Assembly (NCBI RefSeq): GCF_004010195.1
Contig: NC_057756.1
Coordinates: 7,251,983-7,315,982 of the forward strand
Reading direction: 5' to 3'
Length of the DNA stretch: 64,000 nucleotides
Origin: Chiloscyllium plagiosum
Lineage: Eukaryota
Below, in pieces: positions 12,888 through 62,193 of the stretch. Each line of letters starts with the position of its first letter. Positions within the stretch are counted from its first letter, which is position 1. Made by a program: the position numbers and the translations under genes. The notes under the pieces were generated by a model, which saw nothing but the letters and a program-made list of their open reading frames with translations, made no database searches and was not told where the DNA came from.

Positions 12888-12954
12888 ATGCTGCGATTGT
12901 TTATCATTGCCAATGAAGTATATTACATTACTATTGCTGTTATTGGCGTTCCTG
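12888..12954 (+). CDS. GPR139-like: GPR139-like GPCR copy 1, coding exon 1 (MLRLFIIANEVYYITIAVIGVP + 1 nt); joins 14924-15873
   Basis: Start context aaaATGc; ends CCT G|gtaagg (phase-1 donor at 12955). Splicing restores GVPVN in TM1. An alternative in-frame ATG lies at 12831. Confidence 0.85.
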
Positions 12955-14026
12955 GTAAGGTTTGCTTTTAATTATGCATAGGTTGTGGTCATTGCTGCTT
13001 AGACCAAAAGGGAACGTTTCAGAGTGGATCTGGAGTCACGTCTCAGTCAGACCAGAAAAGGATGGTAGTTTCTTTCCCGTAAGGACATTAAGGAATCAGA
13101 TGACGTTCTTCCTAGCAATCAACATTGGATTCATGGTGGTCGGTAGACACTTAATCGCAGATTTTTATTTTCACTGAATTCAAATTGCACCATCTGACAT
13201 GAGGATTCAATCCTGGCTCACATACATTACCACGGTCTCTGGATTAATAGTCTAGTTCGGCCATTGCCTGCCTTTAGCAGAACTTGTAAATGTTACATAA
13301 ATCAGTGCAGTGGAATATCATGTCAACGTGCTTATATTTGTCTCAAAGTATTTGCCAATGTAGAACCGGGTTCACTGTGTTTCAGTTGGCATTGCCATCA
13401 TCAGACATGCATTGTCAGGATTGTTGTAAGTTTTGACTAGACCTTATGTGGGTGGTTACAGTGAGCTGATGACATGTAAGGAAACCTTTACTTGTTTAAC
13501 ACAGTAATTTCCCCTTTAATTTTGCTGAACAATTAAGGCTTTTCTTTCAATGAGTAGTTAAGAAGAAACACTGATATTTCCTAATTCCAGGAAGTCACAT
13601 GAATGGAAAACAGGTAAAATCATTCACTAACGTATCACCAGTACTGCGTCTGTTTTTGCAGTCTTGAAGATAATCCATGATTCGAACAGTGGTTTCCACA
13701 AATTTAGATAAATGTCAGGTACTAAATTTCGGAAAGGCAAATCAGTGCAGGGCAGGAGTCGCAGGTAGATTGGAGAGTGAAGAAGTTGTTTGGTACATGT
13801 ACTTTTACATGTCAATGCATTGAGTATAGGAATTGGGAAATCATTTTGCAGCTGTACAGGACATTGATTGGGTCATTTTTCATTTCCCTGGTTGCAACTG
13901 TGGTCTCCTTGTTATATGAAGCATGTTGATAAGCTTGATAGGGTGTACAAAAGATTTACAAGGATATCACCGGGGTTGGAGAGTTTGAGTTTTATACAGA
14001 CTCTGAATTGGCAGAGGCTATTTTCC

Positions 14027-14179
14027 AGGCAAAAGTGAGGACTGCAGATGCTGGAGATTAGAGTCGAGAGTGTGGTGCTGGAAAAGCACAGCAGGTCAGG
14101 CAGCATCCAAAGCAGGAAAATTGACATGCTCCTTGAAAACTGCCTGACCTGCTGTGCTTTTCCTGCGCCACACTCTGGA
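14027..14179. repeat. Small Penelope-terminus-derived inverted-repeat insertion in the copy 1 intron
   Basis: 37-bp inverted arms at 14067-14103 and 14140-14176, flanked by the direct repeat gctattttcc at 14017-14026 and 14180-14189. Confidence 0.8.
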
Positions 14180-14923
14180 GCTATTTTCCCTAGTGTACGG
14201 AGGCCGAGGGTCATAGACAGGATGAATAGTAAACATTTCATTAATCTTACACTACAATTCAGTTTCATAATGGTTATCTCCTTTGGTAAATGCGTTAAGT
14301 CCTCAACTCCAGGTCTACCTGTTGATAGGGCGAGGACATGATCTCTTATCATAAGTGCCATTATTCCTATATTCTTGTGGGACATTGTATCAGAATAGAC
14401 TATCACCTAAATTAGGATTATGAAATCTAATGATACCAAATCCATGGGTGGAATATTTGTAATGTAGATGCCATTCTGTGGCAGATTGCTTTGTGACAAT
14501 GTTAAAATGTGTCATTGCAACACTGATATCCACCGCTCCGTGTCGAGGAGAATAGAATGGTAATTTTTGGGAACACGGATGTGAAATTTACACTCTGCTG
14601 CACTCCTCATGTTCTTTTTATTCTTCCATTCAAGGAATGCTGTTAATTAAGCCAATATAACAAGATTAAACTGATTCTGTATGCAGCAGTAACATATTCA
14701 ACTGTTCATTTTGCACCACCGCAGCCATTTTGCAATACTTCATCTTCAACACCACTCTTCCACTATTTTGGTTGAGGGATGCAGCGTAATGAAGGATGAA
14801 ATGACAACTAAAATTCATTTTACATTTCAATACTGTTCCTGACCACCCTTTAGCCATCTCGCTTCAAATCAAAGGTTGTACCACTTACAATATCTAAACT
14901 ACTTTCAGTTTTCCCTCTAACAG

Positions 14924-15873
14924 TTAATGCACTGGCAATTGTGATCCTGTCCCAAGGAAAGTGCGGCCTTTCTAGATGCACCAGTCATTACCTGGTGGCC
15001 ATGGCAACAGCGGATCTTATGGTCATCATCACTGATGTTACATTCAATCACCTGAATCAGTACTTTTACCAGGGATCATTCCTGCACCTGACGCCTGCAT
15101 GCATTATGCTTGATTTTCTACTTTCTGTGAGTTCAGACTGTTCTGTCTGGTTCACTGTCACATTCTCCGCTGATCGGTTTGTGACCATTTGTTGCCAGAA
15201 ACTGAAACTGACATATTGTACCGTGAAAACAGCAGCTGTCATTCTTTCAACAACCTGCATTCTTTTCTTTCTAAAAAATGTTCCTATTTTCATTACACGG
15301 GAACCGATGATTGTGGTTGACAATGTACAGTGGTCTTGTCAAATGAAGGCCAGCTACTATATTGAACTCAGATGGATGGTTTTTGATTGGATTGATAAAG
15401 TGTTAACACTATTACTGCCATTCATTTTAGTTTTGCTCTTCAATATTTTGACAGTCAGATACATTTTAGTGGCGAATCAGATTCGTAAAGGATTGAGGAG
15501 TCAGAACACAGAAGAGAAGCGCAGTGATCCTGAGATGGAGAGCAGAAGAAAGTCAATGATTTTACTGTTTGCCATATCTAGTAACTTCATACTGCTGTGG
15601 TCACCCTATGTAATAAATTTCTTATATTATAAAATTGCAGCAATTGATCCCAGATATTACAATGACAGGTTGCGTATATTTGAAAGAATTGGATATATGC
15701 TGCTGAATCTGAGTTGCAGCACAAATACGTTTATGTATGGAGTTACTCAATCGAAGTTTAGGGACCAGTTTATTCGCGCTGTAAAATACCCACTGGCTTC
15801 AGTGAACAGTGTCTTCACTTTCAGAATGAATTTATGGCAATCTAAACAATACCATACAAAGCTGTTTTCATGA
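14924..15873 (+). CDS. GPR139-like: GPR139-like class A orphan GPCR copy 1, coding exon 2 (intact; full protein 338 aa)
   Basis: Acceptor ttccctctaacag|TT AAT. Seven hydrophobic segments with motifs AMATADL (TM2), PAC and ADRF (TM3), ECL2 WSC, LLPF (TM5), FILLWSPY (TM6), NTFMY (TM7) and helix-8 KFR. AATAAA at 15888-15893. Confidence 0.92.
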
Positions 15874-16784
15874 GTGCAACATTGAACAATAAATATTCAT
15901 CAACTGATTGAAATCAAAAATGTTTTTGAGTGTAAGCTGCAGTGCAGCAGTGCAGGCTTAGCTTGCATTGGATGTTGTTTTCTTTTGGATTGCTGTAATA
16001 TCGAGACAAAAGTTTTAACCTTCATCTGAGATAAGCATAATGAACAATTTGTTCGAGAATGTTACATCATTACAGAATCCACAGACATAAAGGAAAATGC
16101 CCAAAAAATCAACACGATGAACTGAATTAGGGAGATTGCATTCCATCAAAAGGTAGCACCAAATTTAACTACTGGGCCATTCATTAGTTTTGGTGTTGTA
16201 TTGGAAATGAGGTCTCTCATATTCTGTATGCCTCATTTCAGTTTTGTTTTGCAACACTCTTTTCTCTCATTTTATTTACCTCAGAAATGATCTGCATGTT
16301 AGCAAATGATGTTAATTTTGGAGAGCTGAAATTCAAAACTGAAATCTAGATTGCTATTTCATCTTTGTTTCATTTGTCGTTTAACGTGGTAGCCCTTTCA
16401 GTGAAAGATAAGAGCGTAACTCTGCATATTGATTTTTTGCAACGAAGAAATGACATTACTAAAGAATATAAAAGTAATGAGAACGTATTTGTGCTCTTTA
16501 CATATGAAGTTTTTAAAGCACATAGCGCAAGTACATTCTCGACTCTCACAATAACATTACTTTGCAGTCTTCAAAAGTTGGTCGAGAGTTTCATTCTGGG
16601 TCACGTCTAAAGCCCTGACTTAGCTGTTTCTTTCACTTTCTGATCTTGGACGTTTGTCAGCCTTTTTTAAATGATTCATACAACTGATCTTGATTATTCT
16701 TTGCATTAAATGATGCTATCTGATTTAAACCAAAGTTTAAACCAGCTCTCCTGAAATTTTTATATCAATATAATTGTAGTAGGA

Positions 16785-17055
16785 TAACATAGAATCATAG
16801 AAACCTTACAGTGTGGAAAAAGACCCCTCTGCCCAACAAGTCCACACTGACCCTCTGAAGCGTAACCCACTCAGAACCATCCCCCTCCTAACTAATGGAA
16901 CCTAACCTACAAATCCCTGAACACTATGGGAAATTTGTACTGGGTAATTCACCTAACCTGCAGATTTTCGGATTGGGGAGAAAACCAGACCACCCAAAGG
17001 AAACCCCACCAGACAAGGCGAGAATTAAAACTCTACACAGCCAGTCGCCCGTGGC
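16785..17055 (-). mobile_element. tRNA-derived SINE (HE1-like), 5'-truncated; followed by a different dispersed repeat at about 17065-17430
   Basis: Reverse complement of the SINE tail and core: cagtgtggaaaaagaccc..attcacctaacctgcag. Confidence 0.7.
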
Positions 17056-19514
17056 TGGATTTTGTTTTATTCATTCATGAGATGAGGGTGTCGCTGGCCA
17101 AGGCAGCATTTATTGCCCATCCTGATTGTCCAGAGGGCAATTAAGATTTGACAACATTGCTGTAGGTCTGGAGTCACATATAGGCCAGACCAGTTAGGGA
17201 TGGCAGCTTCTATTCCTGAAGGGCATTGTTGATTCAGATGGGCTTTTCCAATAATCGACAATGGATTTGTTGTCATCATTAGATTCTTAATTCCAGATTG
17301 TTATTGAATTCAAATTCCACTATCTGCCACGGCGGAATTTGATCCCAGGTCCCCAGAACATTAAGTCCCCAGACCCTGGTTTCTGAAATAGTAGTCCAGC
17401 GATAATACCATTAGGCCATCGCCTCCCCTATTGATGTTTTGAACAGTTCATTATTTTCTCGTGGAGGATGTTTCACATTTTCCTACGATGCAATTTTACT
17501 TTGTTTACTAATCGTTCAAGACTAAAACTCCAACAACACTTTCAATTAAATGAAGTTTCTGTTCCAAGTCGTGACTTATGTTCACTTGTGGATCAGCTCC
17601 ATTTCGGTGAAATGGATAAATCCACCTCGAGCCCATTTCCATTTAATTGCAGTGTATTCACTGGACTTCTCTTCCTAGTGTGGTAGGTCAGGTTCATGCG
17701 CATTGAAGACACAAACGACTGAAGACAGAACCTGCTCTCTTTCTTCTAATTTTCTTGTGACAGAAAACGATGTGTTAGGTTTAAATCAGGTGGGACAGAC
17801 AGGAACGTATTACTTGAACCTGGACTGAATCTTGCAAATGTTACAAACAATGCAGGAAACAAACGACCATTTGTACAATCTGCAGGATCCACTGCAAAGT
17901 GGGTCACTCACCAAACTTCCTCTGACAGCACGTTCCAAGCTCACGGCCCTGTCCCCTAGAATAGCAAGGGTAATTTATGCATGGGACCACAGACCCCTGC
18001 AAGTTCCCTGACAAACCACACACTATCCTGACTTGCAATTAGATCAGGATTTCTTTGAAATGAAAGGCTGTGTCTGCATTCCTCACAGCACAGTGTCTCA
18101 TGGGTTTTACTGCTGTTATGTTCTGGACTGTGAATGGAGGTGAACTTTTGAGTGCAGGGGTAATTAGACAAGGTGAGGGGATAGGAAGGCTTGTCCCTAT
18201 TCCTGAGGAAACGAGGGTTTGACTTGGAATTCACAGAGAGTGTATGAGAGGTGCTGAGACAGAGGGACCAGGACGAGGGGACAGAGATTGACAGGAGAGT
18301 GTGGTGTGAGGGGAGAGACAGAGAAAGGGAGGAGAGGTGGGCCGAGAGGCAGACAGTTTGGCACGGGGCAAGGTATCGTTGAGTGTGAACGTTTTGTAGC
18401 AAATGTTTGAAATGAAGCCTTTGAGATTCAAATCCCGAGGGACTGTCTCTCTTGCTTCAGTTTTGCTCCCTTTCTGTCCTCCTTTCTCACACTCATTCTG
18501 TTTCTCCACCAGTGTTTTCTATCTCTCCCTCGCTTTTACTCATGTTTACTTTCTTTTTCTATTTCCCTCTATCTGTCTGTCCCATTCCCTCTCTTTCTCT
18601 CTCAACAACCTCTCTCTCTTCCAGTTTTTTTTTGTAGTATGTCACGGTTTATGGAATAGTGGAGCTCAAAGATCAGCCCAAACTGAGCCCTGGTAAAAGT
18701 TTGATATGAAAATTACATTGCCAATCTAAGTTGGTTGTGAGTGCTTCAAAATACTGCAGCGTGCCACAGACTGGAGTCAAAACAACTGAGCAACATTTCA
18801 TCTTCTGTGAGCTCGAACTGGATCTATTTTAAATGCATATACGCTTATGATGATTTTTGTTTTGTAAGTTTAAACGAAGTTCAGTCTTGTTATTATGTGA
18901 ACATGAAGGTTATATCTATCCTTGGGCCAGTTTTAAGTTTGTGACACAGAAGACATCTGCAACTCATTTCAACAGCTCAGCGTATCATCTCAAAGTTGTG
19001 GACATGGGGTGGGAAGTCTCCGTCAAGGACAAGCAGCACTTGTTGGGTCTTCCACTGAGTTGGTCAGACTAGAATCCAAACTGATGCGACAGCTCCTTCC
19101 AAATTGGGCAAACGTCTGTGTTCTCTCTTCCCTCCTTTTTCAATATCTGCCATGTCAAACTGGCTGTGGGAGCGACAACGACTAAGTCTTCTTTTCCTCT
19201 TCCTGATAATTACAAAAATTGTTAAAGATTTGCAAATGAGGTGTTTTAAAATGTAATACATTGTGTGAAATAATCAGTAGAAGAATTTCGCGGGGTGGTG
19301 GGGGAGAGGGGAAGGTTGCATTCTGTATGGCAAACAGGCTTTGTGAAGCCAGGAATACAAAACCTAAAACACAGTTATTCTCATTTGTTGTTGTGGCTGA
19401 GACAAGTGATGGATCAACAATTGACCAGTGGTATGCCCTCGAGGGGTTGTACGCTTCTCATAATCCCCTATTGTCAGCAGATAGCAATATAGACTCTTGT
19501 GGTCTTGTCATATC

Positions 19515-19855
19515 ATTGAAGCCCCACTATGTGGTAACAGGCCATGTGGCCCAAAACGTCCACACTGATCTTCCAAAGAGAAGCCCCCCCCAAGACCTAA
19601 CCTGATGCTATAATTCCCGTGCCTTATGCACCTAACCTGGATATCCCTGAACACTGTCAGCAATTACTACAGCCAATCCAACTAATTTACAAACTTTTCG
19701 ATGGTGGGAGGAAAACAGAGCACCCTATGGAAACCCACATATGCACGAGAAGAATGTGCAAACTCCACAGGGACAAATGTCCAATGTTTAGAAGCAAACC
19801 TAGATCCCTGGCACTGTGATGTTAGCACTGCTAACTACTGAGCCACTGTGCCTCC
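19515..19855 (-). mobile_element. tRNA-derived SINE (HE1-like)
   Basis: gctaactactgagccac is the reverse of the A box; aatgtgcaaactccaca is the core. Confidence 0.75.
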
Positions 19856-21451: not shown

Positions 21452-23749
21452 TTTTCCAGAGAAGCCTTCATAGGAATATTCTTAAAAGATAATGCTGTAA
21501 GATTATGACCTGGTAATGACATAACATTTATCAGAATAAAAGTACACCTTACTATACATTGAAAATAAAGTGTATACTTAAAACTGCTCTGTTTTAGAAA
21601 GGGGAGATGGGTGACAAATCCTGAAATGTAGATAATGCTTTGGGGATGTGCATTGAAATCCCAATTAGGCTGCTGGTGGAAGTCATGTGTAAATATTTTA
21701 TTTGGAATTGAAATGTAATCTCAGTATTGCTGAACCTGACAACCCACATAGATTGATTGAGAAAAGGAAAATTGAAGTCACGGAAATTGAACCTATAGTC
21801 AAGCCCCCATCTTTCCAATGTGTGGCTTCAGACGCAGACTAACATGCTTAACTCGCCTTATGCCTGAAATGAAATATCTCTGCAACACTATCCCCACCAC
21901 ACCCTCACCCTCTAATTCATCTCTCAGCCCTCTTTCTCCCTCCCATATCCACATTCTTGATCGAGATGTTATGCCCGAAACCTCGATTCTCCTGCTGCCT
22001 GACCTGCTGTGCTTTTTCAGCGCCACACATTTTGACATATTTCTGAGATAGACCAGTAGGGATCACTCCCTTCACTTCAAACAGTTAGATTCAATTCGGT
22101 GTGGACATATCAAGTGATGGTGTTTGGAGAGAGACTGGATTGGCTAGGACTATAGTCACTGGAGTTCAGATCCATATGGTGGTGCAGCGGGGGTGGGATC
22201 TCATAGCAACCTATAACAGTCTAACAGGGATAGATAGAGCAAATGCAGGAAGATTTTTCCTGATGACCGGGGAAGTCCAGATCTAGCAGGAGGGAAAAAT
22301 GAAGAGACATGTCCTCACCCAGAGAGTGGTGAGCTTGTAGAATTTCGGCCAGAGAAGTGTTTGAGGCCAAAACATTAGATGCTTTCAAGCATCAGCTGTG
22401 TATAACTCTTCAGGCTAAATGGATCAACTCATATGAGTAGAAAGTCTGGAGGGGCTGAGTAACTTTTCGCTCTGTCCAAGAATAGGCAATTATTTGAACC
22501 CTCTTCTCCTGCGAGCAGTGGACAATGGTTATTGAATAAATTAAAAGGTTTATTTCTGCTCAGTAAGAGAGATGTGGCCCATGGGTGGCCAGACAGAAAA
22601 GTGGAATTCAGTCCAGAATTAGAAAGACCCTGATCTTATTAAATGGTTCAGGGGAGTTGTTGGGCCAAATGGCCTATTTCTGCTATAATTTATTAAGCAA
22701 TTGAATGACAGCCAGAAACATGATATGCTATATTGAGAGGTTATTCTGATACCAAAGAGAACCAAATTCTCATAATGATACTGGTCATTTTAATATTTTC
22801 AAAACTGTTCTCCCACTTCAAAAAAAATCAATTTGATGACAACTAATAAAAGTAACAATTAACACAGTCACACCTTCAGAGAAGACATTGAACCAGGAAT
22901 TATACATGTATTAACATTATACCCGCAGAAGCCAAAATATTGAATGTTTTCATGGAGGAGACAGATTTGTTCCTATGGTTAAAGGGATCAGAGAGTATGA
23001 GGAGAAAGCGGGAACGAGGGACTGAGTTTGATGATCAGCAGTGATCATATTGGATATTGGAACAGACTGGACAGGCCGAATGGCCTAATACTTCTCCTTT
23101 TTGACGTTTTCATGTTTAGCATTCACTGTCATAGTGGTTAGCTAGCCAAAGGCAATACTGCCCCAGGGGTGTAGAATAATTTCTCTCAACAGGTTCATTC
23201 GAAAATATTAACACTGAATTTAATGATAGATTCAAAAAAGCATTGCACATAATTTCGGCAAGTTATGCATAATGCAAAAGAGACTACAGATTTATTCAGA
23301 TAATTGTGTTTGTGACTGAGTGAGCTGATTCCAATAATTATATTTCAGAATAAACAGAAATGTAGCTTTTGATTGAAACCGGTACCTGCTGATTCTAATA
23401 GCATGCTCGTTCTCTGCTGTGCATGAAATCAGCTTCTCGAATGGAATGAGATGAATCTGTGTCAGAGAGCTCTGATGCAATCCATTATTCACCGTCCTGA
23501 CATGGACTCGAACATCTGAAGTGTTTTGAGTAATCTTGTTTTCCCACTGAGGGTCCATGTTTTGTTTACTGGGGGATTGGCTCTGACTCTGCAGGTTCAA
23601 GTGAGTGATTCATGGAACTGATGCAGATTGGACAACATACTATTCCGGGGTTTTCTACAAGACGGAACAGCAGTGTTGAGGATTTTAATCTGCAGTTGTA
23701 ACTTTTCCATTGAAGAGCTCCCTTTTATTGACTAACTGCAGAAATTAAG

Positions 23750-24093
23750 TTATAGAATTCCTACTGTGTAGAAAGTAGCCCTTTGGGCCATCAAATCAGC
23801 ACAAACCCTCTGAAAAGCATTCCACCCAGTCCTGTCCCTTCGCCCTCTCCCATTTCTCACATTTCCCATGCCTTATCCACCTAGCCTGCGCATCACTGAA
23901 CACTGCAGTTTAATATAGTGTGGCCAATCCAACTAATGTACGCACCTCCAGGAAGACACTGGAGCAGCCACAGGAAATCCGTGCTGAACTGGGGAGAACG
24001 TGCAAACTGCACACAGTCACGCAAGGCTTGGAATCAAGCCCAGGTTCTTGACGCTAAGGGGCAAAGGTGTCAACCACTGAACCACCGTGCCAC
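23750..24093 (-). mobile_element. tRNA-derived SINE (diverged); paralog at about 48365-48700
   Basis: Reverse SINE head ccactgaaccaccgtgcc and core cgtgcaaactgcacacag. Confidence 0.7.
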
Positions 24094-24829
24094 TCTATTC
24101 ACTGACAGCAACTCATTTACTGAGGTGGGAGTTAAATGTTCGAAATCAGTTCAAATCCATATTGATCAATGGATTTTGAGATCAACTTCAAAAGCTACCG
24201 GGGCATGAAATTATGTTCCCAACTAATTCGAATCAGAATATTTAAATCATTTTCTGATGCCATCAGAAGTTATAGGCTACGGGAAGAAACCTCAGCATCT
24301 TTGCTGGTCTTCAGATAGGTCATCCCTTTTTTCGTACTTTAATGTTGTTCTGCAATAACATCATTGGTATATTTACTTTAAAAAATTTGAATTCTGTCAA
24401 TCTCAGCTCTGAGTTGCTCACTTTTCCAGTTGAGCTCTGATAACAATGAAGTGAAAGACCAGATGTGTTAGCTGCCAGATGGTTACATCAAGCGGAGAGC
24501 AGATACTTACACAGCGTGTCCAGCCATCATGCATTGAGTGGCTGGAAACTCTTGAGAACCACACAGAATGCAAGCTTGACGCGGAATGTATGGCATAAAT
24601 ATAATGCTGTACGTCCATTGAATAGACGGCAGTGTGAATTTTAATACATTTTGTTTCACTTTCGAGGACAAATATTTTGTTATACACTCATTTTATTTGT
24701 AAAGTGCATCTCTGTGAAGTAATATCTGTCTCAGTAGAAAGAATGTTTGCAATGATAACTAGAGTTGTCTCAGTAATGGAGTAAGTAAACTGTCTGCGTC
24801 AATTGAATATCAGGGCATTCCAGAACCAG

Positions 24830-25650
24830 TCAATGCTGAAATGCAGCAAGACTCGAACATTCAGGCTCAGGCTGACAAGTGACAGGAAGCAATCGTGCCA
24901 CACAAAGACAGCCACTGACCATATTTAGTAAGAGACAATCTAAAAATTGCCTTTTAAAATAATGGCATTACCGTAATTAAACTGTCCACTCTCAACGTTG
25001 TGCATGTTACCTTAACCAGAAATTCAATGGACTTGCCACATAAATGCAGAGGTTACACTGGCAGTCAAGAGACTGAGAACACTGTAATGAGTAATTCAAC
25101 TCCTGATTTGTCAAAGCCAGTCCGCCATCAACAAAGCACAAGTCAATGCGTGATGGGACGTTTCCCACTTGCCTGGATGAGCGCAGTTCCAACAACAATG
25201 AAGAGGCTTTACACTAGCTAGGACAAAAGAGCCTGCTTGGTTGGCATCACATCCACAAACAGCTATTCTCTCCATAACTGAATTCAGTAGCAGCACGTTC
25301 TACAAGATGCACAGCAGAAATCCACCAAAGCTCCTGACACAGCCCGTTCTCAACCTACTCCCCATCCACCTCAAAGGACAAAGGAGCAGATTCATTGGGA
25401 ACACCACTGCCTGCACGTTTCCATACTAGATCCTCACTATTCTGACTTGGCAGTACATCAGCATTACTTCATTGTTGCTGTTTCAGAGATCAAGAAATCC
25501 CTCGCAAATGGCATTCAGTATGAACTTACAGCACTTGGATTGCAGTGGTTCAACAAGGCAGTGCACCATCACCTTCCCAAATGTAATTAAGGATGGACAA
25601 AGAAAATGCCGGACCAGCCAGTGACACCCTCACATCCCACAAATGAATCA
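24830..25650 (+). mobile_element. Old LINE (L2/CR1 group) RT C-terminus and 3' UTR; paralog at about 49445-50270
   Basis: Degenerate KAQVxxVM..PLAWMSAxPTT motif in ORF 25000-25221. Confidence 0.6.
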
Positions 25651-27039
25651 AATATAAAATTAGAATTACAGAATTAGAATTAGAACGGTGAGTCTGACAT
25701 CAGTGGTGGGTAAGTTACTGGAGCCGACACTGAGGGACAGGATTTGCAGGTATTTGGAAAGGCAAGGATTTATCAGAGAAAGTCAACGTGGCTTCGAGCA
25801 TGGGAAAGCGTGTCTCACTAATTTGATTGAGTTTTCTGAAGAACTGACAAAGAGATTGATGACGGCAGAGTGGTACCCATTGTCTAAATGGACTTCAGCA
25901 AAGACAAGGGTCTGCATGACAGACTGGTAAGTAAGTTTAGATCACATGGAGTCCAGGGGGAGCTATCCAATTGGATTTAATATTGTCTTGAAGGAAGGAA
26001 TCAGAGGGTGGCGGTGGAGGGTTGTCTTTCTGAATGGAAACCAGTAACCAGCTGCGTGCCACAAAAATCAGTGCTGGGACACCACTTGCCAACCCCAGAC
26101 TTGCTGTATTGTGAAGAACTATAGTTTCAGATACATGGGGAACACCACCTCCTGCAAGATCCCTTCCCCGTGCCCTGCCAAACCACGCACTGTTCAGAGT
26201 CAGAAGGAGGTCCCTTGTGAACCAAAGGCGCTGTGTCCAAATATTGATAAGCCATCCTAACCTCACTATGAGTACTCTAATCTCCAGGAACAGCCAGGTT
26301 CAGGAAGGCAGGTTGCTTCCTCGTTTGTCAAGGAAATTATGAATATTCAATAAATGTTATTCCAATCAGCAATGGTCACCTCACAGGCATGAATACAGCA
26401 AAATTGCAGAGGCCCTGAACTGAGTGAAGCGCCTGTCTACAATAGAGAGACAGGAATAGTTTTAGAGTAGACATGTAATACTTTACTGCCTTTCCTAATC
26501 TTCATCCTGATGAAACACTCTCCTTCATGTCTCTTCCTGATTTGTTTTTCATAATGCGCATCGTTTCTTGATCAGGTTCCTCCTCAATACCATTCTCCTT
26601 TTATATTCTGGGTTCAGAATTTCTGGATCCCGGGACTGTAGATATTGCTAACACCTCGCTTCAGCCAGAGAACACTCGCATTTATGTCACGGGCGCAGAA
26701 ATCAAATGAAATGGATCTTCGCATTTTACCTGATCAGTGTTGTTACATTTCACGAAACCTTCAGAGATCATTGGGCACCATGTGCAACTAAATATGGAAA
26801 ATTGGCTCGACTTCTTTTGAAGTCAACAAAGGGAATCAAATGAAACCATTTCATTTAATGTTGGCCAAATTCTGTCTACTAAATCTAAAAAAAAATCCAC
26901 TGTTATATCTATACCAATAAGAATAACAAAACCATCAAATTATATTTAAAACTCTGCAAATGTTAGCAGAAGTTTCGTTTGAAGAAATTAAAATGCGTAC
27001 TTCTGTTTTTGTTGCAGTTTTTAACAAAATTAGCTCTGA

Positions 27040-27685: not shown

Positions 27686-27973
27686 TGCAATACATTCCTC
27701 AAAGGAATTGTCCCATTATCGGGTCACCAAGGTAATAAGCCTTCTCTTTGGTGTTTTCCTATGATGTCACAGAACTGAACAATTCGAAAGCAATAGGGAT
27801 TAATATCTTTGTGGTAATATATTTTCTCAGTCAAATCAGAAATAACAATGATACAGCATCAATATTCACTTGAGAATCCGAAAGAGTATATAACAATTTC
27901 TGAACACAGTAATACTATGTTCGATTTAAATCTTTTGGCTTCACTACCCACGATCCGAACCATCAGATGGAAA

Positions 27974-28040
27974 ATGCTGCAATTGTTTATTATTGTTGAT
28001 AAAGTATATTACATCACTATTGCTGTCATTGGCGTCCCTG
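27974..28040 (+). CDS. GPR139-like: GPR139-like GPCR copy 2, coding exon 1 (MLQLFIIVDKVYYITIAVIGVP + 1 nt); joins 30553-31463
   Basis: aaaATGc start; CCT G|gtaagt donor at 28041. In-frame upstream ATGs at 27917 and 27848 are possible alternatives. Confidence 0.85.
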
Positions 28041-39197: not shown

Positions 39198-39264
39198 ATT
39201 CTGCAATTGTTTCCTATTGTTGATAAAGCATATTACATCACTATTGCTGTTATTGGCATCCCTG
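39198..39264 (+). pseudogene. GPR139-like copy 3, exon 1 (start codon lost)
   Basis: aaaATT replaces aaaATG (ILQLFPIVDKAYYITIAVIGIP). The upstream ATG homolog is AGG (39144). The donor G|gtaagc is intact at 39265. Confidence 0.8.
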
Positions 39265-48700: not shown

Positions 48701-51700
48701 ATTCATTGATAACAATGTACTTATTGAGGTTACTAATGTGAACTACCCCGGATCATTTCAAATCCATGTTGATCAGTCGAGTTTGAGACCAACTTCAGTA
48801 GCTACTGGAGCATTTGATTTCGTTCCCAGCTTTCTCGACACAGATCACTATCTTTACATGATTTTCTGATGCCAGCAGACGTTACAGACTATAGAAGGAA
48901 GAGCCATTCAAGCCTCAGATTCTCTATTGGTAATCAGATAGGTCATGCCTGTTTAGCATTTCAATGTTGTTTCCACCATGACATCATTGGTATCCTAATT
49001 TTAAAAAATGATTTGGATTCGGTCAATCTCAATTTGCTTTGTTTCCTTTTCCAGTTGAGCTTAAACTCCACTGAAATGAAAAATCGAAGCTGACAGCTGC
49101 TAGGATGGTTGAGTCAAACGGATACTTACACAACGTGTACAGCCATCATGCACAAAGTGTCTGGAAACGGTTGAGAACCACACGGAATGCAAGCCTGACA
49201 CTAAATATATGGCGTATATATAATGCTGTACCTGCATTGACAATGTAGCAAGGAGAGCTATATGGCATTTTGTTTTATTTTTAAGGCGGAATATTTTGTT
49301 ATGCATTTATTTTTGAGTAAAGTGCACCTTTAGAAAATTGTATCAGTCCCAGCAGAAGCGGTATTTGCAATGATTGACACAGTTGCCTGAGTAATGAAGT
49401 AAACTGTCTGCAGCAGTTATATTTCAGAGCATTTCGGAAGCAATTAATGCTGAATTGCACCAAGACTTGAAAATCTAAGCTTGAGCTGACAGATGGCAGG
49501 GGATAATTGCCCCACACATATGCCAGGAAATGACCCTCTGCCATAAGAGACCATCTAACCATTGCCTTTTAACAATCAACGGCATTACCATAATTGATTT
49601 GCCTACTGTCAACATTCTGGGGGTTACCATTGACCCCCAGAAGTTCAGTTATATTTGCCATATAAATACAGAGTCTGCATGGGCAGTCAAGATGTTTCGA
49701 ATACTGCAGCCAATAACTCACCTCCTGACTTGCTAAAGTGGTCCACCATCAAAAAGAAACAAGTCAGGAGTATGGTGGAATACTCTCCACTTTCCTGAAT
49801 AAGTGCATGTCCAAGAACAATCAAGAGGCTTGACACCATCGATGAAAAACGATCTTGCTTAATTGGCATCACATTTACAAATATCCACTCCATTCACCAC
49901 TGATGTTCATTAGCACAAGTGTGTACCTACTACAACATGCAGTGCAGAAATCCACCAACATTCCATAACATGTTCAAAAACCACGAGCATTTCAATCGGC
50001 AAAGACTGCAGACTGGGTGCATAGGCGTACCACTTCCTGCAAATCTCCCTACAACATCTTAATTCCTTGACTTGACATCATATCACCATTCATGTTGAGT
50101 CAAAGATCTAGTAATCCCTCCCAAATGGGATTCAGAGTGTATGTACAGCGCATGGACTTCAGTGGTTCAAGGTGACAGCTCACCACCACCTCCTCAAGAG
50201 TAACTAGGCACGGACAGAATAATGATAGCCAGCTAACAATGCCCAAATCCCACGAATGATGTAAAAATAAAATTAGGATGTCGCTGTTGAATTCAGCTTG
50301 CACTAACTGACACTAACATCTTTTTCATTCTTTTCAGATCGATTTGGGTGAGTCAGTGTTAGATAGCTCAGAAGGAGGCTATTATTCTCTGTCCAGGAAT
50401 AGCGTGTAACATCTGACGTGCTCCCCATGTGGTTTTTTTCCCATTAATGTTCCATGTGATGTTTGCTGGGGGATTGGCTCTGACGATGCAGGTACAAGCC
50501 TCAGTCTTTAAAATTATGCAGTTCAGACCAAATACTATTATGGGTTCATCTAAAGAAAAGGAGCAGATTCACATTGTCATGTTTGCAATCATCCACATAT
50601 AATGTTTAGATTGTGGGGTGCATTCTATTTAACTAAGTGGAAAAGTTAATCAAATTATCACTGACAATTTAAATATTTATGTGTAACAACAACGATGATC
50701 ACCACTAATAGGGTGCTGTTGTCAAGCCCAAATTAAGAAATGTACAATATCAGGTCTACTGCAACTTGTTCTCTCATTGGTTATAGAACATGATCCTATA
50801 AATATTTATGAATGTCTCATTCTGACTATCTTTTCGCATCTGACATTTGCAGCCTATATATGAAATTCCCTAAGAAAATCATTGTAGATTTCGGACAAAC
50901 TCTCAGATGTCCTGATTTGTGTCCAGTCAACATGTTCTTATAGTTCAGGGTGTTGTAGGTGAATACCGCCAGTAATCTTTGTGCCTTTTATCATTTCTCA
51001 TATGTTCCAATATCTGTTCCTACGCCTACACTTGCTGAACCTAGGCTATTCCTCTCCATTGCTCTAACGCCATCATTAGAAAACAAGGCGACTAACTTAC
51101 CCCACTCTTTTCCTTGTTCCTGTCATTCATAATTGTCCTGAACCCTTCGAGATTCATGTCTCAGTTCCTGTTATCATCGAACTATGTCTGTTAAGGCTGC
51201 CATGTCATACTGATTCATTTATCCTCACGCTCTCAGATCATCTGCTTTGTTTCAGCCACTATCTTCAATCAGGTATAGACACTTCAACTTTACCCCTTTG
51301 CTGATTTATAAATTTGAATCTTATGTGTTGGTTGACTCTTAAATTTATTTTCTTCCTTTCACAGTCTGTTTGTCATCTCCCGCATTAACATCTTTGCTTT
51401 TGACCCTAACTCAATCTTTGATTTAATATATTGCCCAGGTTTGATATCGTCTCTCCATTCTGTTTTGAATCATCTGCACTTTCCTACCTGACCAGCAGCA
51501 AGAAAACCAGTTCCATCAAGTTGAGATACCGTTTGTCTCATTGGTACATAGGCAACTTTCAGTATTTCTGGTGACAGTGCCAACTCCTCATCTGCACGGT
51601 GTGTTAATTAGAGATGAAAATACACATAGTGTGAAGACAATGATCTCCTGTGGTCAATAGTTAATTACACCTCGGTATATTTCCACCAACCAGAATGTCT

Positions 51701-55352: not shown

Positions 55353-56437
55353 TTCAGGGTTCTCTCTGTCTGGATCTCTGGAACTGCGGTCAGTACTCAC
55401 CTCTGTTTCCCGGTGTGGGGCGTCCCATAACCATGGAATCTATGGATTTCTGCCACTGACAGGCTAATCAACTGCACACAGATTATCTGAACATGGCCTG
55501 ATGACTGCCAATATATTCCAGGAAATATTCAGAGAACTTCTGTAACTAAGGACAGCTGAATAGGAACAAAAAAGTCCAGTGAGATCTGTAACGACAGCCA
55601 AATTAAATGATTCCAATAAATGACAGTCAAATGCTGTGTACTAAATCTTTAAAAATCCACCATTATATAGACATCAATGACAGTAACATACCTAATTTGA
55701 TTGGCTCAACATATTTTGAAGAGAAACCAGCTGCTTGAATGAAGTCCGAATTAAGTACCTGGAGGTCTTTCAGGAGAGTCTAAGGGCTACCAAAGGAGCT
55801 CAGGCCACGGTGACCACGAACAATTCTTCAATTCTGCAAGGCCCGTTCAGTGCCATGTACCTTACATGGAAAAGTGGAGGGAGAAATCAGGAGGTTTTGT
55901 TGTGTTATGGATCTAAGGCATAACGTTTTCAAATGGAGGCTGCTGTGTGTATGGACAAGATGAGGCGAGGAAGGCTGGTAGAATAACAACAATGAAAAGG
56001 CATGTGGACGGTATATGAGCAGGAATGGTTTTGTGGGATATGCAGGAAAATGAGATTAGCTCAGGTAGGATATCCTGTCGGCTTGAATGAATTTGCCCAA
56101 AGGGTCTGTTTCTGTGCTGTATAATTTTATGACTCAATGATTTCCGCAATTAATTACTCACAGTTTTTTTTCCCCCTGCCATCAGGTCACTAAGGCTATA
56201 AGCTTTCACTTTGGTGCTTTCCAATGAAGTCTCAGACCTGAATAATTCAAATGCAATAGGGACTTAATATCTCAGTGATAACATATTTTCACAAACAAAT
56301 CAGAAATAAGAATGATGCAACTTTAAGATTTTCCTGGGAATTTGAAACAGTATAAAAGAGTTTCTGAGCACATCAATACTGTGTTCAATTCAAAGGTTTT
56401 GGCTTCATCACCCAGGAACAGAACCTTCATATGCAAA

Positions 56438-56504
56438 ATGCTGCAGTCGTTTACCATTGTTGATAAAGTTTATTACATCACTATTGCTGTTATTGGCATC
56501 CCTG
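56438..56504 (+). pseudogene. GPR139-like copy 4, exon 1 (splice donor lost)
   Basis: MLQSFTIVDKVYYITIAVIGIP; the donor reads G|ctaagt instead of G|gtaag at 56505. Confidence 0.85.
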
Positions 56505-58444
56505 CTAAGTTTTTTCAAAAATATTTGAATAGCATATGGGCATCACTGGCTGGGCCAGTATTTATGGCACAGGGGGAAAGTTTAGGAGCCAGCCACGTTG
56601 CTGTGGATCTGGAGACACCTTTCAGCAAGACCAGATAAGGGTGGCAGTTTCCACCACTGACGGACATGAGTGAACCAGACAGATTTGTCCAGCATTCGGC
56701 AATGGATTCACAGTCATCATGAGACTGTTTATTCCAGATGTTTGTTTCGATTGAATTCAAATTCCATCATCTAACAGCGGGATTCAAACCCGGGTCACCA
56801 GCAAATTACCAGAGTTTCTGGATTAATAGTCCAGTGATAATGCCAACAGGCTATTTCCTCTCTTTAGCAAAACTTTTAATGTTGATAAATCCGTGCAGTG
56901 GAATACCATGGCACTTATATTTCTAATGCTTTCTTTATTTTTAAATATTTTGTTTTTTTTTCTCAAATTATTGTCACTGTAGAATTAGGATCACTGTGGA
57001 TTAGTTGGCCTTGCTATAATCAGATCTGCATTATCAGGATTATGTAAGTTTGACTTGACCTGATGCGGATAGTTACATTGAGGTGATGACGTGCAAAGAA
57101 GCCTTTTCTTCTTTAGCAAATCTAATCCTGTGTTTATTTTGATGATCAGTTAACTAATTTTCCTTCAAAGAGTAGCTTAGAGGAATTTGAGAAGTTATGT
57201 GAATGGAATGCAATGAAAACCGTTCACTAAAATATCAGCAGTACTGAGTATGTTTTTCCAGTCTTTAACTTATGTCGTGATTCGAAAAGTAGTTTCCACA
57301 AATTTCTATAAATCTGACGTACTACATTTTGGAATGGCAAATCAAGACAGGAGTTAGAAACTTAATGGTAAGTTCGTGAGGATTGATGCCGAACAAAGAA
57401 TATTTTGAGTGCAGTTTCAGAGTTCCTTGAAAGCAGAGTTGCAGGTAGATAGGACAGAGAAGAAGGCATTTGGTACTTGTTCCTTAAAGTCAGTGCATTG
57501 AGTATACGTATTGGGAGGTCATGTTGAAATTGTGCACGACATTGGTTATGCCACTTTTAGAATGTTATGTGCAATTCTGGTCTCCTTGCTTTCGGAAAAA
57601 TGTTGTTAAACTTGAAAGTGTGCAGAAAAGATTTACATGGATATTGCTGGGTTAGAAGGACTAAGCTACAGGGAAGGGCTGAATAGACTGGTCTATTTCT
57701 CTGGAGATTAGAGGCTGAGGGCCAATGATAGTGTGAATAAACAAGCTCTTGACCTCAGCATAAGGGATTCCAAAACTAGGATGGATAGCGCTTTGGTGAG
57801 AGGAGAAACATTTAAAAGAAACTGAAGGGCCAACCTTTTCATGAAATGGTGCTGCTTATATGGAATGAGCTCGCACAGCAAGTGTTGGAGGCTGTAAAAT
57901 TGCAATATTGAAAATGCATTTTTCATGTACAGAAAGGGTTTAGCGAGACATGTGACAAATGCTGGCATATGGGATTCGGTTAATTTAAGATATTTGCTCA
58001 GCATGAACAAGTTGGATTGAAGGGTCTTTTTCCGTGCTGTGCATCTCTATTACGCCAAATGACTGAAGGTGATTGTTAGGTGTTTGGAGTGTAGAATAAA
58101 TAGTTGATTGTGTCCAAAGAGAGAGTAAACCAATTGCAAGGACAAGGTTAAATATATACTGTCTCCTCTGATAGAATTCTACCTTTTCCATTATTTCGGA
58201 AACATACTTTGTTGAACTGATGTACAGATTGACTGTGGCATTTGGTTATCTTAAGAGTCATCAATGGTTTCATTTATCTTGCACCACATTTCAATCTCTC
58301 AATGGTTACTCCTGTGCTTCATGGGTTAAATCCGCAACTCCATCTTCATTTGTTGACAGAGTATGGATTTGTTCTCTTATCGTGAGTGCCACTATTCCCA
58401 TGTTTTTGTGTAACATTGTATAAGAATATATCTGAGAGGGGTCA

Positions 58445-60735
58445 TGAGTGTAGTGCTGGAAAAGCACGGCAAATCATGCAGCAACCGAGCAGCTGGAGAA
58501 TTGACATTTTGGGCATAAGCCTTTCATCAGGAATGATGCTTGTGGGCTGGGGCTCTGAGAGATAAATGGGAGAGTGGTGGGGTTGGGGGGAAAATAGCTG
58601 AGAATGTGATATGTAGAGGATGTTGGGGGAGAAGGTAATAGATTGGGGAGGAGGGTGGAGTGGATAGATGGGAGAGGTGATGGACAGATAAAAAGGGCAG
58701 TGCCAAGTTGGAGGATTGGAACTGGGATAACGTGGGGGAAGGAAACTGAGGAAACTAGTGAAATCCACATTGATCTCATGTTGTTGCAGGGTCCCAAGGT
58801 GGAATATGAAGTACTCTTCCTCCACGAATTGGGTGGTTAGGGTTTGGCGATGGAGGAGGCCCAGAACCTGCATGTTCTTGATCGAGTGGGAGGTGGAGTT
58901 GTAGGGTTCAGCCACGGGTGGAGGGGGTGGTGTTGGCCCGTGTGGGTGTTTCCCAGAGATGTTCTCTGAAATAATCACCAGTTGGTATCCTGCCTCCCCA
59001 ATGTAGAGGAGACCACTTCATGTGCAATGGATACAGTAGATGACATTTTTGGAGGTACAGGTAAATTTCTCTCAGATGTGGAAGGATCCTCTGGGCCTTG
59101 GACGGAATTGAGGGAGAGATGTGGGTGTAGGTTTAGCACTTGCTGCAGTAGCAGTGGATGGTGCCGGGACTAGGGTGAGGGCTGGTGGGGGCCGTGGATG
59201 TGACAAGGGAGTTACAGAGTGAATCGTCTCTCTGGGATGCTGAAAGGGATGGGGAGGGAAATATATCCCTGATGGTGGGGTCCATTTGTAGGTGGTGGAA
59301 TTGGCAGAGGATGATGCAATGTATGCGGAAGTGAGGACCAGTTGTGTTGGGTGGGATGGGGTTCAAAGGAGGAGATGCAGGAAGTGGAGGAGATGTGCTG
59401 GAGGACATCATCAACCATGTGAGAGGGGATATTGTGGTCTTTGAAGAAGGAAGCTATCTGGGATTTTCTGTGGTGGAATTGGTCATCCTGGGAACAGATG
59501 TGGTGGAGGCAGAGGAATTGGGAATGAGGGATGGCATTTTTACGGGAGGCAGTGTGGAGGCGGTGGAGGTAGCTGTGGGTTTGTAGTAGATGTTGATGGT
59601 TAGTTGGGTTACTGGAGATGGAGGTGCAGAGGTCCAGGAAGGGGAGGGAGTTATCTGAGATGGTCCAGGTGAATTTGAGTTCGGGGTAAAGATGTTAATG
59701 AAATTGATGAACCGTTCACCTCCTCGTGAGTTCAACCACATGTTCAACCAATGCATTTCCTCCACATCCTGCACCTTCGCCCTTGAACACCACCCCACCA
59801 AATGTAACAAGAACAGAATACCCCTGGTCCTCAACTTCCATCTCGTCAACCTCCATATATATCACATCATCCTCCGTCCACCAATTCAAACAAACCCCAC
59901 GACCAGGGATATATTTCCCTCCCAACCCCATCAGCATTCCAGAGATACCATTCCCTCCTTGAGTCCCTTGTCAGATCCGCACGCCCCACCAGCCCTTGCA
60001 CCACTCCCGGCACCTTCGTTTGCCACTGCAGGAAGTGCAAATCCTGCATCTACACCTACCCCCCAAAGGATCCTCCCACATCTGACAGAATTTACCTGTA
60101 CCTCCACCAATTTCATCTACTGTATCCGTTGCACCCTATGTGTTCTCCTCTACATTCAGAGAAACAGGACATTAACTTGCAGCTCATTTCAGAGAACATC
60201 TCTGGGACACCCACATGAACCAACCCCACCGCCGTGTGGCTGCGCACTTCAAATTCCCCCCCCCACTCCCCAAAGGACATGCAGGTACTTGGCCCTCTCC
60301 ATCACCAAACCCTAACCACCCTTAGCCTGGAGGAAGAACACCTCATCTTCTGCCTTGTGACCCTGCAACCACACAGGATTAATATGAATTTCGCCAGTTT
60401 CTTCATTACCCACCCCCTACATTATGCCAGTCCTAAGCCTTTATCTTGGCACCACCCTCTTGACCTGCCCATTGTTTTTATCATCTATCCACTCCACCCT
60501 GCTTTCTGACCTATTGCCTTCTCTGCCATCTTCATCTAACTATTGCATTCTCAATTACTTTTCCCCAGCTCCACCCATCCCATTTATCTCTCAGCACCCC
60601 GTGGCCACAACCTTCATTCCTGATGAAGGGCTTATGCCCAAAATGTTGATTCTCCAGCTCCTGACCTGCTGTGTTTTCCCAGCACTACACTCTCGATTCT
60701 GATCTCCAGCATCTGCAGTCCTCACTTTCTCTCCG
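58445..60735. mobile_element. Two Penelope-like fragments in inverted orientation inside the copy 4 intron
   Basis: The left half (to about 59710) is on the - strand and the right half on the + strand. GIY-YIG-like FTCTSTNFIYCIRCTLCVLLYI and LEEEHLIFCLVTLQPH motifs. Both outer ends carry the shared terminus with a degenerate hammerhead core. Confidence 0.82.
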
Positions 60736-60976
60736 CAATAACAACATATTCTACTAACTATTTTTGACCTCCACAGCCATTTTTCAGTACTTTATATGTA
60801 ATACCACACACCCACTCCCTTTGCTTATTGCACATAGCTTCATGTGGGATGAATTTGGAATAAAATTTATTTTTATATTTTAATATTCTTCCTGAGCATC
60901 CTATTGCCATCTCTACTCAAATACAAGATTGTTCAAGCTACAATTTCTGAACTAATGTTAGTTCTCCATTTTACAG

Positions 60977-62193
60977 TTAGTGCAGTAGCAATTGTGATCC
61001 AGTCCTGAGGAAAATGTGGTCTCTGGCCATGGCAACAGCAGATCTGATGGTCATCATCACTGATGTTACATTCAAACAGCTGAACCATTATTTTTACCAG
61101 GGATCATCCCTGCACCCGACACCTGCGTGCATTGTGGTTGACTGTCTACTTTTTGTGAGTTCAGATTGTTCTGTCTGGTTCACAGTTGCTTTCTCCACTG
61201 ATTGGTTTGTCACCATTTCTTGCCAGAAACTGAAACTGATATGTTGTACAGTGAAAACAGCAACTGTTATTCTTTCAACAATCTGCACTCTTTCTTTCTA
61301 AAAACAAATCCCATTTTCATTATACTGCAACCTATGATTGTGTTTGACAATGTACACTGATCTTGTCAAAGAAAGGCCAGCTATTTTACTGAACTCAAGT
61401 GGATCGTTTTGATTGGTTAGATAAGCTATGAACACCATTGCTCCCATTCATTTTAGATATAGATTACTTACAGTGTGGAAACAATCCTTTCAGCCCAACA
61501 AGTCCACACTGAGCCGCCGAAACACAACCCACCCAGACCCATTCTCCTACATTTACCCCTTCACCGAACACTATAGGCAATTCAGCCGGGCCAATTCACC
61601 TAACCTGCACATTTTTGGACTGTGGGAGGAAACCGATGCACCTGAAGGAAACCCACACAGACACGGGGAGAACATGCAAACTCCACACAGTCAGTCGCCT
61701 GAGGTGGGAATTGAACCTGGGTCTCTGGCGCTGTGAGGCAGTAGTGCTAACCACTGTGCCACCGTGCTGCCCTCAAATTTTAGTTTTGCTCTTCAATGCT
61801 ATGACAGTCAGATACGTTTTAGTGGTGAATCGGATCCGCAAAGGATTAAGGAGTCAGAACACGGAGGAGAAGCGCAGTGATCCTGAGATGGAGAGCAGAT
61901 GGAAGTCAATGATTTTACTGTTCACCATATCGAGTAGTTTCATATTGCTGTGGTCACGCTATGTAATAAATTTCTTATGTTATCAAATTGCAGCAATTGA
62001 TCCCAGAACATAGAACAGCGGTTTGCATGTATTTGAAAGATTTGGATACATGCTGCTGAATCTGAATTGCTGCACAAATACATTTATTTATGTAGTAACT
62101 CAGTCAAAGTTCAGGGAACAGTTCATTCACGCTGTAAAGTACCCACTGACTGCAATTAGCAGAGTCTTTACTTTTAGAAAGAATTTATTATAA
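60977..62193 (+). pseudogene. GPR139-like copy 4, exon 2 (multiply disrupted)
   Basis: Acceptor ttttacag|TT AGT. Stops at 61006-61008, 61358-61360 and 62011-62013. A 25-nt deletion near 61025, DRF>DWF at 61203-61205 and a SINE inside TM5. Confidence 0.92.
61457..61776 (-). mobile_element. Full-length HE1-like tRNA SINE inserted in exon 2 of GPCR copy 4
   Basis: Reverse head gggcagcacggtggcacagtggttagcact..ggttcaattccc. 7-bp TSD attttag at 61450-61456 and 61777-61783. Confidence 0.92.

Follow-up and report, generated by a model that had tools for sequence, protein, structure and literature searches.

A large overlooked receptor family of sharks and rays, likely made up of chemical sensors and possibly serving smell

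Which receptors are encoded by the tandem array in this stretch of a shark genome, and what might they be for? The window, by which we mean the whole 64,000-nucleotide stretch analysed, holds four plus-strand paralogs, in each of which a phase-1 intron separates a coding exon 1 of 67 nt from a long exon 2. Coordinates, splice sites and lesions bear out the earlier note, which had described two intact genes and two pseudogenes with this two-exon layout. Copy 1 (exon 1, 12888-12954, with 22 codons plus 1 nt covering the N-terminus and the first half of TM1 up to a GT donor; exon 2, 14924-15873; spliced protein 338 aa) and copy 2 (coding exon 1 with GT donor, 27974-28040; exon 2, 30553-31463; spliced protein 325 aa) have GT/AG splice sites and no internal stops, and their exon 2 products are identical at 245 of 302 aa (81%), as against the 80% or so estimated beforehand. 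Copy 3 has lost the start codon of exon 1 (39198-39264; ATT), and its exon 2 (41631-42554) encodes DWF instead of DRF and is frameshifted by a 1-nt insertion near 42267. Copy 4 has lost the splice donor of exon 1 (56438-56504; CT, not GT), and its exon 2 (60977-62190) contains stops, a 25-nt deletion, two 1-nt deletions and a SINE-like insertion of ~327 nt (61450-61776). A fifth relic with the same layout had also been claimed. The plus-strand segment concerned (33520-34480) is non-coding and consists of the 3' part of an intron, 65-72% identical to that part of the other copies' introns, with a repeat element after it. The two-exon layout is missing from it: low-stringency searches, one using exon 1 together with its promoter and the other using exon 2, gave zero matches there, each query returning exactly the four copies in the window.

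The window cuts out part of a longer tandem array with at least 19 copies, 18 listed exon 2 copies on one strand of C47:7.155-7.62 Mb plus copy 4; exon 2 is stop-free in 13 of the 19, and six are dead. Copies arise through local duplication of the promoter-exon 1-intron-exon 2 unit and are lost to stop codons, frameshifts, damaged splice sites or inserted repeats. The birth-and-death tandem expansion suspected earlier is thus real and far larger than supposed: not a handful of copies, but at least 1,151 loci genome-wide by exact matches to one TM3 motif (control 0), a type of count that unplaced contigs may inflate. Two disjoint ICL3 motifs gave 322 and 357 genome matches (controls 0), and the C8-type branch has, by its ICL3 motif, at least 357 copies. 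The elasmobranch members bear the automatic RefSeq name 'probable G-protein coupled receptor 139', which is misleading for the family; an atlas search returned that same name and invertebrate peptide-type receptors, nothing more. A search of titles and abstracts, with most subscription journals outside its reach, found no paper treating or describing this family, and the terms 'GPR' and 'GPCR' are absent from the text of the bioRxiv version of the zebra shark karyotype paper.

By sequence the family belongs to the class A (rhodopsin-like) GPCRs. Pfam 7tm_1 matched all three exon 2 frames tested (69.7 and 76.9 bits reported) and was the only profile at E<=0.1, with no family-specific OR, TAAR, V1R or V2R profile in any of the three. 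None of these receptor types was among the 20 PDB sequence matches, the best of which, and the nearest solved relative by sequence, was GPR139 (E 3e-10). The predicted model of a close relative (P0001) has seven TM helices and H8 (pLDDT 84.8), and its fold-search matches were all class A, of the generic peptide-type GPCRs. The resemblance to GPR139 and GPR142 (PDB 7vug and related) includes the 7tm_1 fold, a W before the DRY motif, a position 7.50 that is not proline, the absence of the TM4 tryptophan in the alignment, and a phase-1 intron in TM1 whose AG acceptor sits at a codon shared by family members, two further single-copy relatives, GPR139 and GPR142. TM4 and a TM7 that is not NPxxY were among the likenesses to GPR139 pointed out in the earlier note.

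It had equally been supposed that the array does not contain the GPR139 ortholog, and this is correct: true GPR139 is a single gene on C21 of this genome and true GPR142 a single gene on C24, and the family is about 30% identical to GPR139 and GPR142. Membership of the GPR139/142 group did not survive the tree, in which the GPR139 plus GPR142 clade (100/100) excludes the family; the family is, on this phylogeny, a lineage of its own outside that clade, and the wider grouping that makes it sister to GPR139/142 has support of 76/92. Unlike GPR139 and GPR142, its members have extra cysteines in ICL1 and ICL2 and a DPEME.RRKS loop motif, and they number over a thousand as against one each.

The signalling motifs are nearly invariant in the family, whereas positions in the pocket and loops vary. 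Among 51 family sequences D2.50 and D3.49 are retained in 51, R3.50, N7.49 and Y7.53 in 50 and W6.48 in 48; the DRF motif and the basic ICL3 belong to the same conserved set, and P7.50 is replaced, mostly by T. GPR139 agonists contact E3x32, R6x51, N7x38 and W166, according to the available part of PMC12775434. None of these residues is among those listed at the corresponding columns of the 51 sequences; the columns differ between family members and are occupied in the window copies by L, Y, Y/I and I, respectively, the loop column being less surely aligned. Because the family lies outside the clade and is without the pocket residues, the Trp/Phe sensing of GPR139 and GPR142 is not transferable to it. 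That these are GPR139-like receptors for aromatic amino acids or neuropeptides, at work in the brain or gut and multiplied for the sake of gene dosage, would suit the best solved-structure match, the shared phase-1 intron and the sister grouping. The agonist contacts missing from variable columns, and the persistence of GPR139 and GPR142 as single genes, make this highly improbable, and the least probable of the readings weighed here.

Both young subfamilies have a conserved inner face and an outer face that varies more. The dN/dS figures, which are pairwise and mutually non-independent, are 0.23 for the inner versus 0.40 for the outer face among 15 sequences of the window's subfamily, and 0.31 versus 0.89 among 15 C8-type sequences; the inner-face intervals lie well below 1 in both, indicating purifying selection. 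Two outer loops of the C8-type reach 0.92-1.05, near-neutral or diversifying, and no region has a dN/dS confidently above 1 (highest regional value 1.05, 0.65-1.67). A mostly neutral amplification, in which the two-exon unit is swept along by duplications in unstable, repeat-rich parts of chromosomes and few copies matter, would account for the high death rate, both locally and in a C7/C8 sample (18 of 40 dead, 6 further copies being unreadable owing to gaps), and for C8-type copies that are dispersed, in both orientations and with satellite-filled introns; the possible inflation of the counts points the same way. We nevertheless regard it as very unlikely, given the purifying selection on inner faces, an expansion common to sharks, skates and rays, and a promoter motif retained although the flanks are unalignable in 462 of 465 promoter pairs. 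No satellite was found upstream of the window copies' promoters.

Each window copy has a plus-strand promoter module. In copy 1 (12763-12806) it comprises TGATGCAA (12763), an O/E (EBF)-like site with one mismatch (12780-12789) and TATAAA (12801); in copy 2 (27849-27893), a degenerate TGATGCAA-like element, an O/E-like site with two mismatches (27866) and TATATAA (27887); in copy 3 (39076-39119), an O/E-like site with one mismatch (39093) and TATAAA (39114); and in copy 4 (56313-56356), TGATGCAA, an O/E-like site with two mismatches (56330) and TATAAA (56351). The EBF and CARE consensus names are those that we take to apply to these elements. With at most one mismatch allowed, 215-95 nt upstream of the exon 1 donor, the EBF consensus occurs in 11 of 31 family promoters (background 2.8%) and in 13 of 25 held-out promoters (background 2.7%), and the enrichment persists after merging of alignable kin (9 of 27 and 7 of 19). 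The EBF-type site keeps a fixed place upstream of the TATA box in subfamilies whose upstream DNA cannot be aligned; about half of the promoters have no strict EBF site. By itself TGATGCAA is equally frequent in the next 120 nt upstream (15/31, 13/25), TAATT alone is not enriched in held-out promoters (4/25, background 11.9%), and an over-specified promoter pattern had 0 genome matches. For C8-type genes the 10 kb searched contained no exon 1 at any of 20 loci, so that the EBF figures cover the other branches only.

A homeodomain plus O/E composite, CTAATTANNTCCCNGGRG, has 27 matches genome-wide against 7 for the control. A family exon 1 lies 140-167 nt downstream of 22 of the 27 by profile, and four more were recognised by DNA match, giving 26 of 27, three of which had served in designing the pattern. 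The sole match outside the family, on C36, is ~50 kb from a gene that is presumably MEX3-like, and among ORFs of at least 150 aa in 180 kb there is no receptor-like frame. The homeodomain half is limited to one branch, and the window's branch is without a homeodomain site. In mouse, homeodomain and O/E sites mark OR enhancers and promoters (available parts of PMC5608512 and PMC5638857, the latter giving YYYCARRRR as the O/E-like consensus); likeness to this control DNA was judged on site types alone.

The earlier note held that tissue cannot be read from the sequence. The promoter motifs are, within the limits of sequence evidence, a real clue towards sensory neurons, and since many members have motifs resembling those at the promoters of mouse smell-receptor genes, the family is likely to be a large chemosensory set that has been overlooked and that possibly serves smell. 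It is large, clustered and pseudogene-rich, with an O/E site in the proximal promoter, as in an olfactory-type repertoire. The vertebrate OR, TAAR, V1R and V2R repertoires, the rodent vomeronasal FPRs and the MRGPRs share with it tandem birth-and-death growth, a compact coding region, a conserved inner face and a variable outer face, and ORs share the O/E promoter site and, with one branch of the family, the homeodomain site; the family differs from all of these in its GPCR branch and in the coding intron in TM1. We put at about even the prospect that the family of the window array is a chemical-recognition repertoire in sensory neurons, most likely olfactory. On this view EBF would switch the genes on sparsely in sensory neurons, working together with a homeodomain factor in one branch and, in that of the window, possibly with an ATF/C-EBP factor. 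Each receptor would recognise a waterborne ligand of its own through the variable outer pocket, and the G protein would be common to all, a scheme that would suit the microvillous, Go/TRPC2-positive neurons found in the shark nose.

The same repertoire logic could apply in non-olfactory sensory cells, such as trigeminal or spinal ganglion neurons, chemosensory cells of skin or gill, or taste buds, in the manner of the mammalian MRGPRs, receptors that sharks lack. Most branches, including the window's, have the O/E site and TATA box without the homeodomain half, EBF factors occur widely among peripheral neurons, and the contrast in dN/dS between faces fits equally. MAS1 relatives are absent from cartilaginous fishes according to the available part of PMC8455134. 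We think this unlikely, the tight homeodomain plus O/E motif of one branch being familiar above all from olfactory neurons. Quite unlikely, too, is a repertoire for immune or barrier sensing that would resemble FPRs or chemokine receptors, be expressed in B-lineage or myeloid cells and have diversified against microbes. EBF1 and the C/EBP-ATF factors regulate B cells and myeloid cells, and the near-neutral outer loops, copy number and many dead copies of the C8-type would suit it; against it, the sequences show no kinship to FPRs or chemokine receptors, having GPR139 as best PDB match, the fold matches are generic peptide-type GPCRs, and to our knowledge the homeodomain plus O/E motif is no B-cell signature. 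Several observations count against the olfactory reading itself. The action of EBF extends to B cells, fat cells and many neurons, and the homeodomain half occurs in one branch only. The O/E-like sites of the intact window copies have one and two mismatches. Catshark neurons are all Go/TRPC2-positive with V2Rs reported as the dominant receptors (PMC10116579), and a top-50 gene list for brain and olfactory tissue contains no GPCR (PMC11979771).

Expression was sought at two loci, window 12500-17400 (copy 1) and one locus of the homeodomain branch. The single-cell run X6 (13 million records) gave ~13 and ~22 partial paralog-like reads on coding parts, on both strands and without spliced joints; X8 gave short contigs only, and X7 and X9 no reads. 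No RNA dataset was listed as containing copy 1. Because these runs carry no tissue label, the trace reads speak neither for nor against the olfactory reading.

Published surveys report a 'relative paucity' of GPCRs in cartilaginous fishes and 20-62 olfactory receptor genes, despite many sensory neurons (available part of PMC10869828), which is odd beside their large olfactory organs. A family of more than a thousand loci that evolves like chemoreceptors and has promoter motifs of olfactory type makes this puzzle directly testable. It is quite possible, though we say so tentatively, that sharks and rays have here their main olfactory repertoire, many hundreds of intact genes derived from a single-copy gnathostome receptor that was put under EBF/homeodomain control and multiplied to a number like that of ORs, and missed so far owing to its origin in a separate GPCR lineage. 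If so, olfactory receptors would have arisen independently once more among vertebrates, and sharks could no longer be regarded as smelling with about 40 receptors. Should the family prove to be immune or somatosensory, it would remain a very large vertebrate GPCR expansion, unstudied and automatically misnamed.

The earlier note had suggested a family expanded in cartilaginous fishes. The expansion does appear to be confined to them, and the best 120 of 1,355 protein-database relatives at E<=0.001 are all from sharks or rays, but the lineage itself reaches further: the tree joins the family to amphibian, sturgeon and reedfish genes (99.9/100), apparently one per species (Xenopus tropicalis XP_031757816.1, Pleurodeles XP_069092602.1, Erpetoichthys XP_051780584.1). 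Since frogs have retained the single-copy gene, we abandoned the idea of a link to electroreception; the Xenopus counterpart offers a route to functional work. The counterpart shares with the shark family the DPE..RR loop motif and, unlike it, retains K6x51 and N7x38, both of which the shark family has lost; among amphibians it is 66-74% identical.

The window holds four GPCR gene copies on the plus strand, recovered by six-frame translation and self-comparison; in each, a phase-1 intron of 2.0-4.5 kb separates a 67-nt coding exon from a second exon of about 910-950 nt. The spliced proteins of copies 1 and 2 (338 and 325 amino acids) are free of stops and share 245 of 302 exon-2 residues; the earlier note was largely right in describing same-strand, two-exon paralogs, two of them intact and about 80% identical and two of them pseudogenes. 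In copy 3 the start codon is gone, DRF has become DWF and there is a frameshift; copy 4 has lost its donor and contains stops, deletions and a SINE-like insertion. The fifth, two-exon relic that was also claimed does not survive: positions 33520-34480 are purely intron sequence, and searches of the window with each exon returned the four copies and nothing at that position. The whole gene unit has been duplicated and has decayed. Because spacer blocks 22042-25666 and 46602-50279 are long duplicates with 69% identity, the duplication unit takes in many kilobases of intergenic DNA. Spacers at 1-10200, 34480-35730 and 58440-60700 are filled with decayed LINE (CR1/L2-like) and Penelope-like fragments, as judged by translation. 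DNA run X5 is about 99% identical to unique parts of the window, and one of its contigs joins 12999 to 13438; the 438-nt intron piece 13000-13437 is thus absent from that individual or haplotype.

Of 8,095 first-look candidates from a protein search of the genome, 126 went on to scoring. The list of matches has 127 entries; for 126 of them, spread over many contigs, E is <1e-94, with 50-82% identity apart from copy 1 itself. Eighteen of the listed matches lie on a single strand of the window's contig, C47 (where the window spans 7251983-7315982), at 7.155-7.62 Mb, making 19 with copy 4, and exon 2 is stop-free in 13 of these. Searched exactly, a degenerate TM3-motif pattern occurs 1,151 times in the genome (control 0), a TM7 pattern 210 times, and two disjoint ICL3 patterns 322 and 357 times. 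The figure of 1,151 is a floor for family size, because, of 35 loci chosen by protein search, the TM3 pattern fits only 20; our rough guess is 1,200-2,000 loci in total, of which unplaced contigs may repeat some. In 40 loci drawn from the first 100 TM3 matches listed (38 on contig C8, two on C7), exon 2 is intact in 16, broken in 18 and gapped in six. The proposed lineage-specific receptor expansion was right in outline and understated in scale, the genome holding at least 1,151 copies and not a handful. Among the 1,355 proteins returned by the protein database search, the best 120 belong without exception to sharks and rays and nearly all carry the automatic name 'probable GPR139'; carpet shark proteins come closest, at 79-83%. 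Ten divergent representatives each come from sharks, skates or rays, with no chimaera protein among these sequences. Cartilaginous fishes are said to have relatively few GPCRs (excerpt of PMC8455134) and to average 43.8 olfactory receptor genes (excerpt of PMC10869828). Our literature search, with subscription journals and some supplements outside its scope, found no description of this receptor family.

The C8-type subfamily is young and numbers at least 357 copies, which lie scattered in both orientations, not in tandem, on C8 and at the ends of many other contigs (loci L031-L048, L070-L089 and L217-L236). The N-terminus of its receptors is extended, built from tandem copies of a short unit of about 14 residues (DQNLRT.DWN.PT-like; opposite strand of locus L041, about 6100-6400; also proteins P0232 and P0245), whereas other branches have a very short N-terminus. 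Some C8-type copies have a satellite of about 65 bp upstream of exon 2. No C8-type exon 1 was found within 10 kb upstream, and the promoter results below concern the other branches.

A GPR139 motif has a single genome match, on contig C21. A search with that gene ranks GPR142 next, at 56%, and then family members, at about 30%, which bears out the earlier view that the family is not the true GPR139 orthologue. Several members lie 0.5-1.5 Mb from GPR139 (C21:59.2-60.3 Mb) and look like ordinary subfamily members near a contig end. Searching with a coelacanth relative brought up a third single gene (C26, 64%) and, at E 1e-40, the family. The salamander protein that the representative search supplied matched 19 more amphibian clusters, at 66-74% and roughly one for each species, as well as a sturgeon protein, which in turn matches a reedfish one; no teleost or amniote orthologue appeared among the matches listed in this word-limited search. 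In a tree of 36 sequences, with whose groups another tree agrees, GPR139 and GPR142 form a clade (100/100) that excludes the family, contrary to the membership proposed before. The family's own grouping, at 99.9/100, is with the genes of amphibians, sturgeon and reedfish. Next to join, at 88.6/94, are two other conserved lineages of single-copy genes, and the link of this wider group to GPR139/142 has 76/92. The intron position is common to GPR139, GPR142, the other single-copy relatives and the family. Together, the tree groups and the intron mark the family as an old gnathostome lineage beside GPR139/142, amplified in elasmobranchs. Loci L062 (C26:36.60 Mb) and L057 (C98156) each stand for a conserved, apparently unnamed GPR139-like lineage with a single copy, which coelacanth and teleosts also have, and both keep R6x51.

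A model of an 83%-identical relative has seven helices, a two-strand ECL2 and helix 8, and a fold search with it returned generic class A receptors. The activation motifs scarcely vary across 51 family sequences, whereas E3x32, R6x51, N7x38 and W166, the GPR139 agonist contacts according to an excerpt of PMC12775434, are replaced and variable. That the members act as GPR139-like receptors, as the common intron and the tree link to GPR139/142 might suggest, is highly improbable beside these replacements. Pairwise dN/dS, with the regions drawn from the model, was computed for two sets. In the window's subfamily, represented by 15 intact members, the inside has 0.23 (0.18-0.30) and the outside 0.40 (0.31-0.54). 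In the second set, 15 C8 loci left from 16 intact ones after one was dropped as another subfamily, the values are 0.31 (0.22-0.43) and 0.89 (0.66-1.18). The outer loops are most variable in the C8-type. The contrast shows function with a freer outer face, not positive selection: the signalling side is under purifying selection and the outer side varies. Neutral amplification, to which the many broken copies might be ascribed, is very unlikely against this constraint.

Upstream of exon 1, the C47 copies have in common TGATGCAA, a TTCCCNNGGGAA-like site that three neighbours match perfectly and, some 90 nt ahead of the ATG, a TATA box. Exon 1 was located in 30 of 40 distant loci. Allowing no more than one mismatch, the EBF consensus occurs in 11 of 31 promoter intervals (these 30 loci and copy 1) against 2.8% of background tiles, the interval and relaxed motifs having been picked after viewing the same loci; upstream DNA is alignable in just 3 of the 465 promoter pairs. 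Because of that post hoc choice the test was rerun on 40 new loci, 25 of which yielded exon 1: the EBF site is present in 13 of 25 (background 2.7%), and the published O/E-like consensus YYYCARRRR in 15 (background 17.8%). With alignable kin merged, the EBF counts are 9/27 and 7/19. The O/E-TATA module is conserved. As family signals, TGATGCAA alone and TAATT alone were unconvincing in the new-locus test.

In one branch CTAATTA stands two bases before the O/E site. This pattern has 27 matches in 3.6 Gb (control 7), 26 of them before a family exon 1, three being training loci; the window copies belong to the branch that lacks the homeodomain half, with one or two mismatches in their O/E-like sites. 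The pairing resembles mouse OR control DNA in site types, composite spacing aside: excerpts describe an excess of Lhx2 and Ebf sites in OR promoters and an Lhx2/Ebf composite in OR enhancers (PMC5608512), and H, P and J elements defined by TAATKR and YYYCARRRR (PMC5638857). We put at about even the chance that the family is an olfactory repertoire, in which EBF would drive expression in sensory neurons, each cell expressing one or few members that would detect diverse waterborne ligands and signal by a shared G protein. A shared G protein would fit catshark, whose olfactory neurons are all Go- and TRPC2-positive, with moderate expression frequency of the V2R co-receptor orthologue (excerpt of PMC10116579). 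The O/E module would also suit a repertoire in other sensory cells, an unlikely reading given the likeness to OR control DNA. An immune repertoire, for which the variable outer side might speak, is quite unlikely beside the homeodomain+O/E pairing of one branch. RNA runs with the label of X5, by its window match the same or a very close species, tissue not given, contained only trace paralog-like reads, unspliced and from both strands. The sole homeodomain+O/E match outside the family, locus L201 (C36:30.41 Mb), has other O/E-like sites close by and a MEX3-like gene roughly 50 kb away; it is possibly an enhancer or a chance match.
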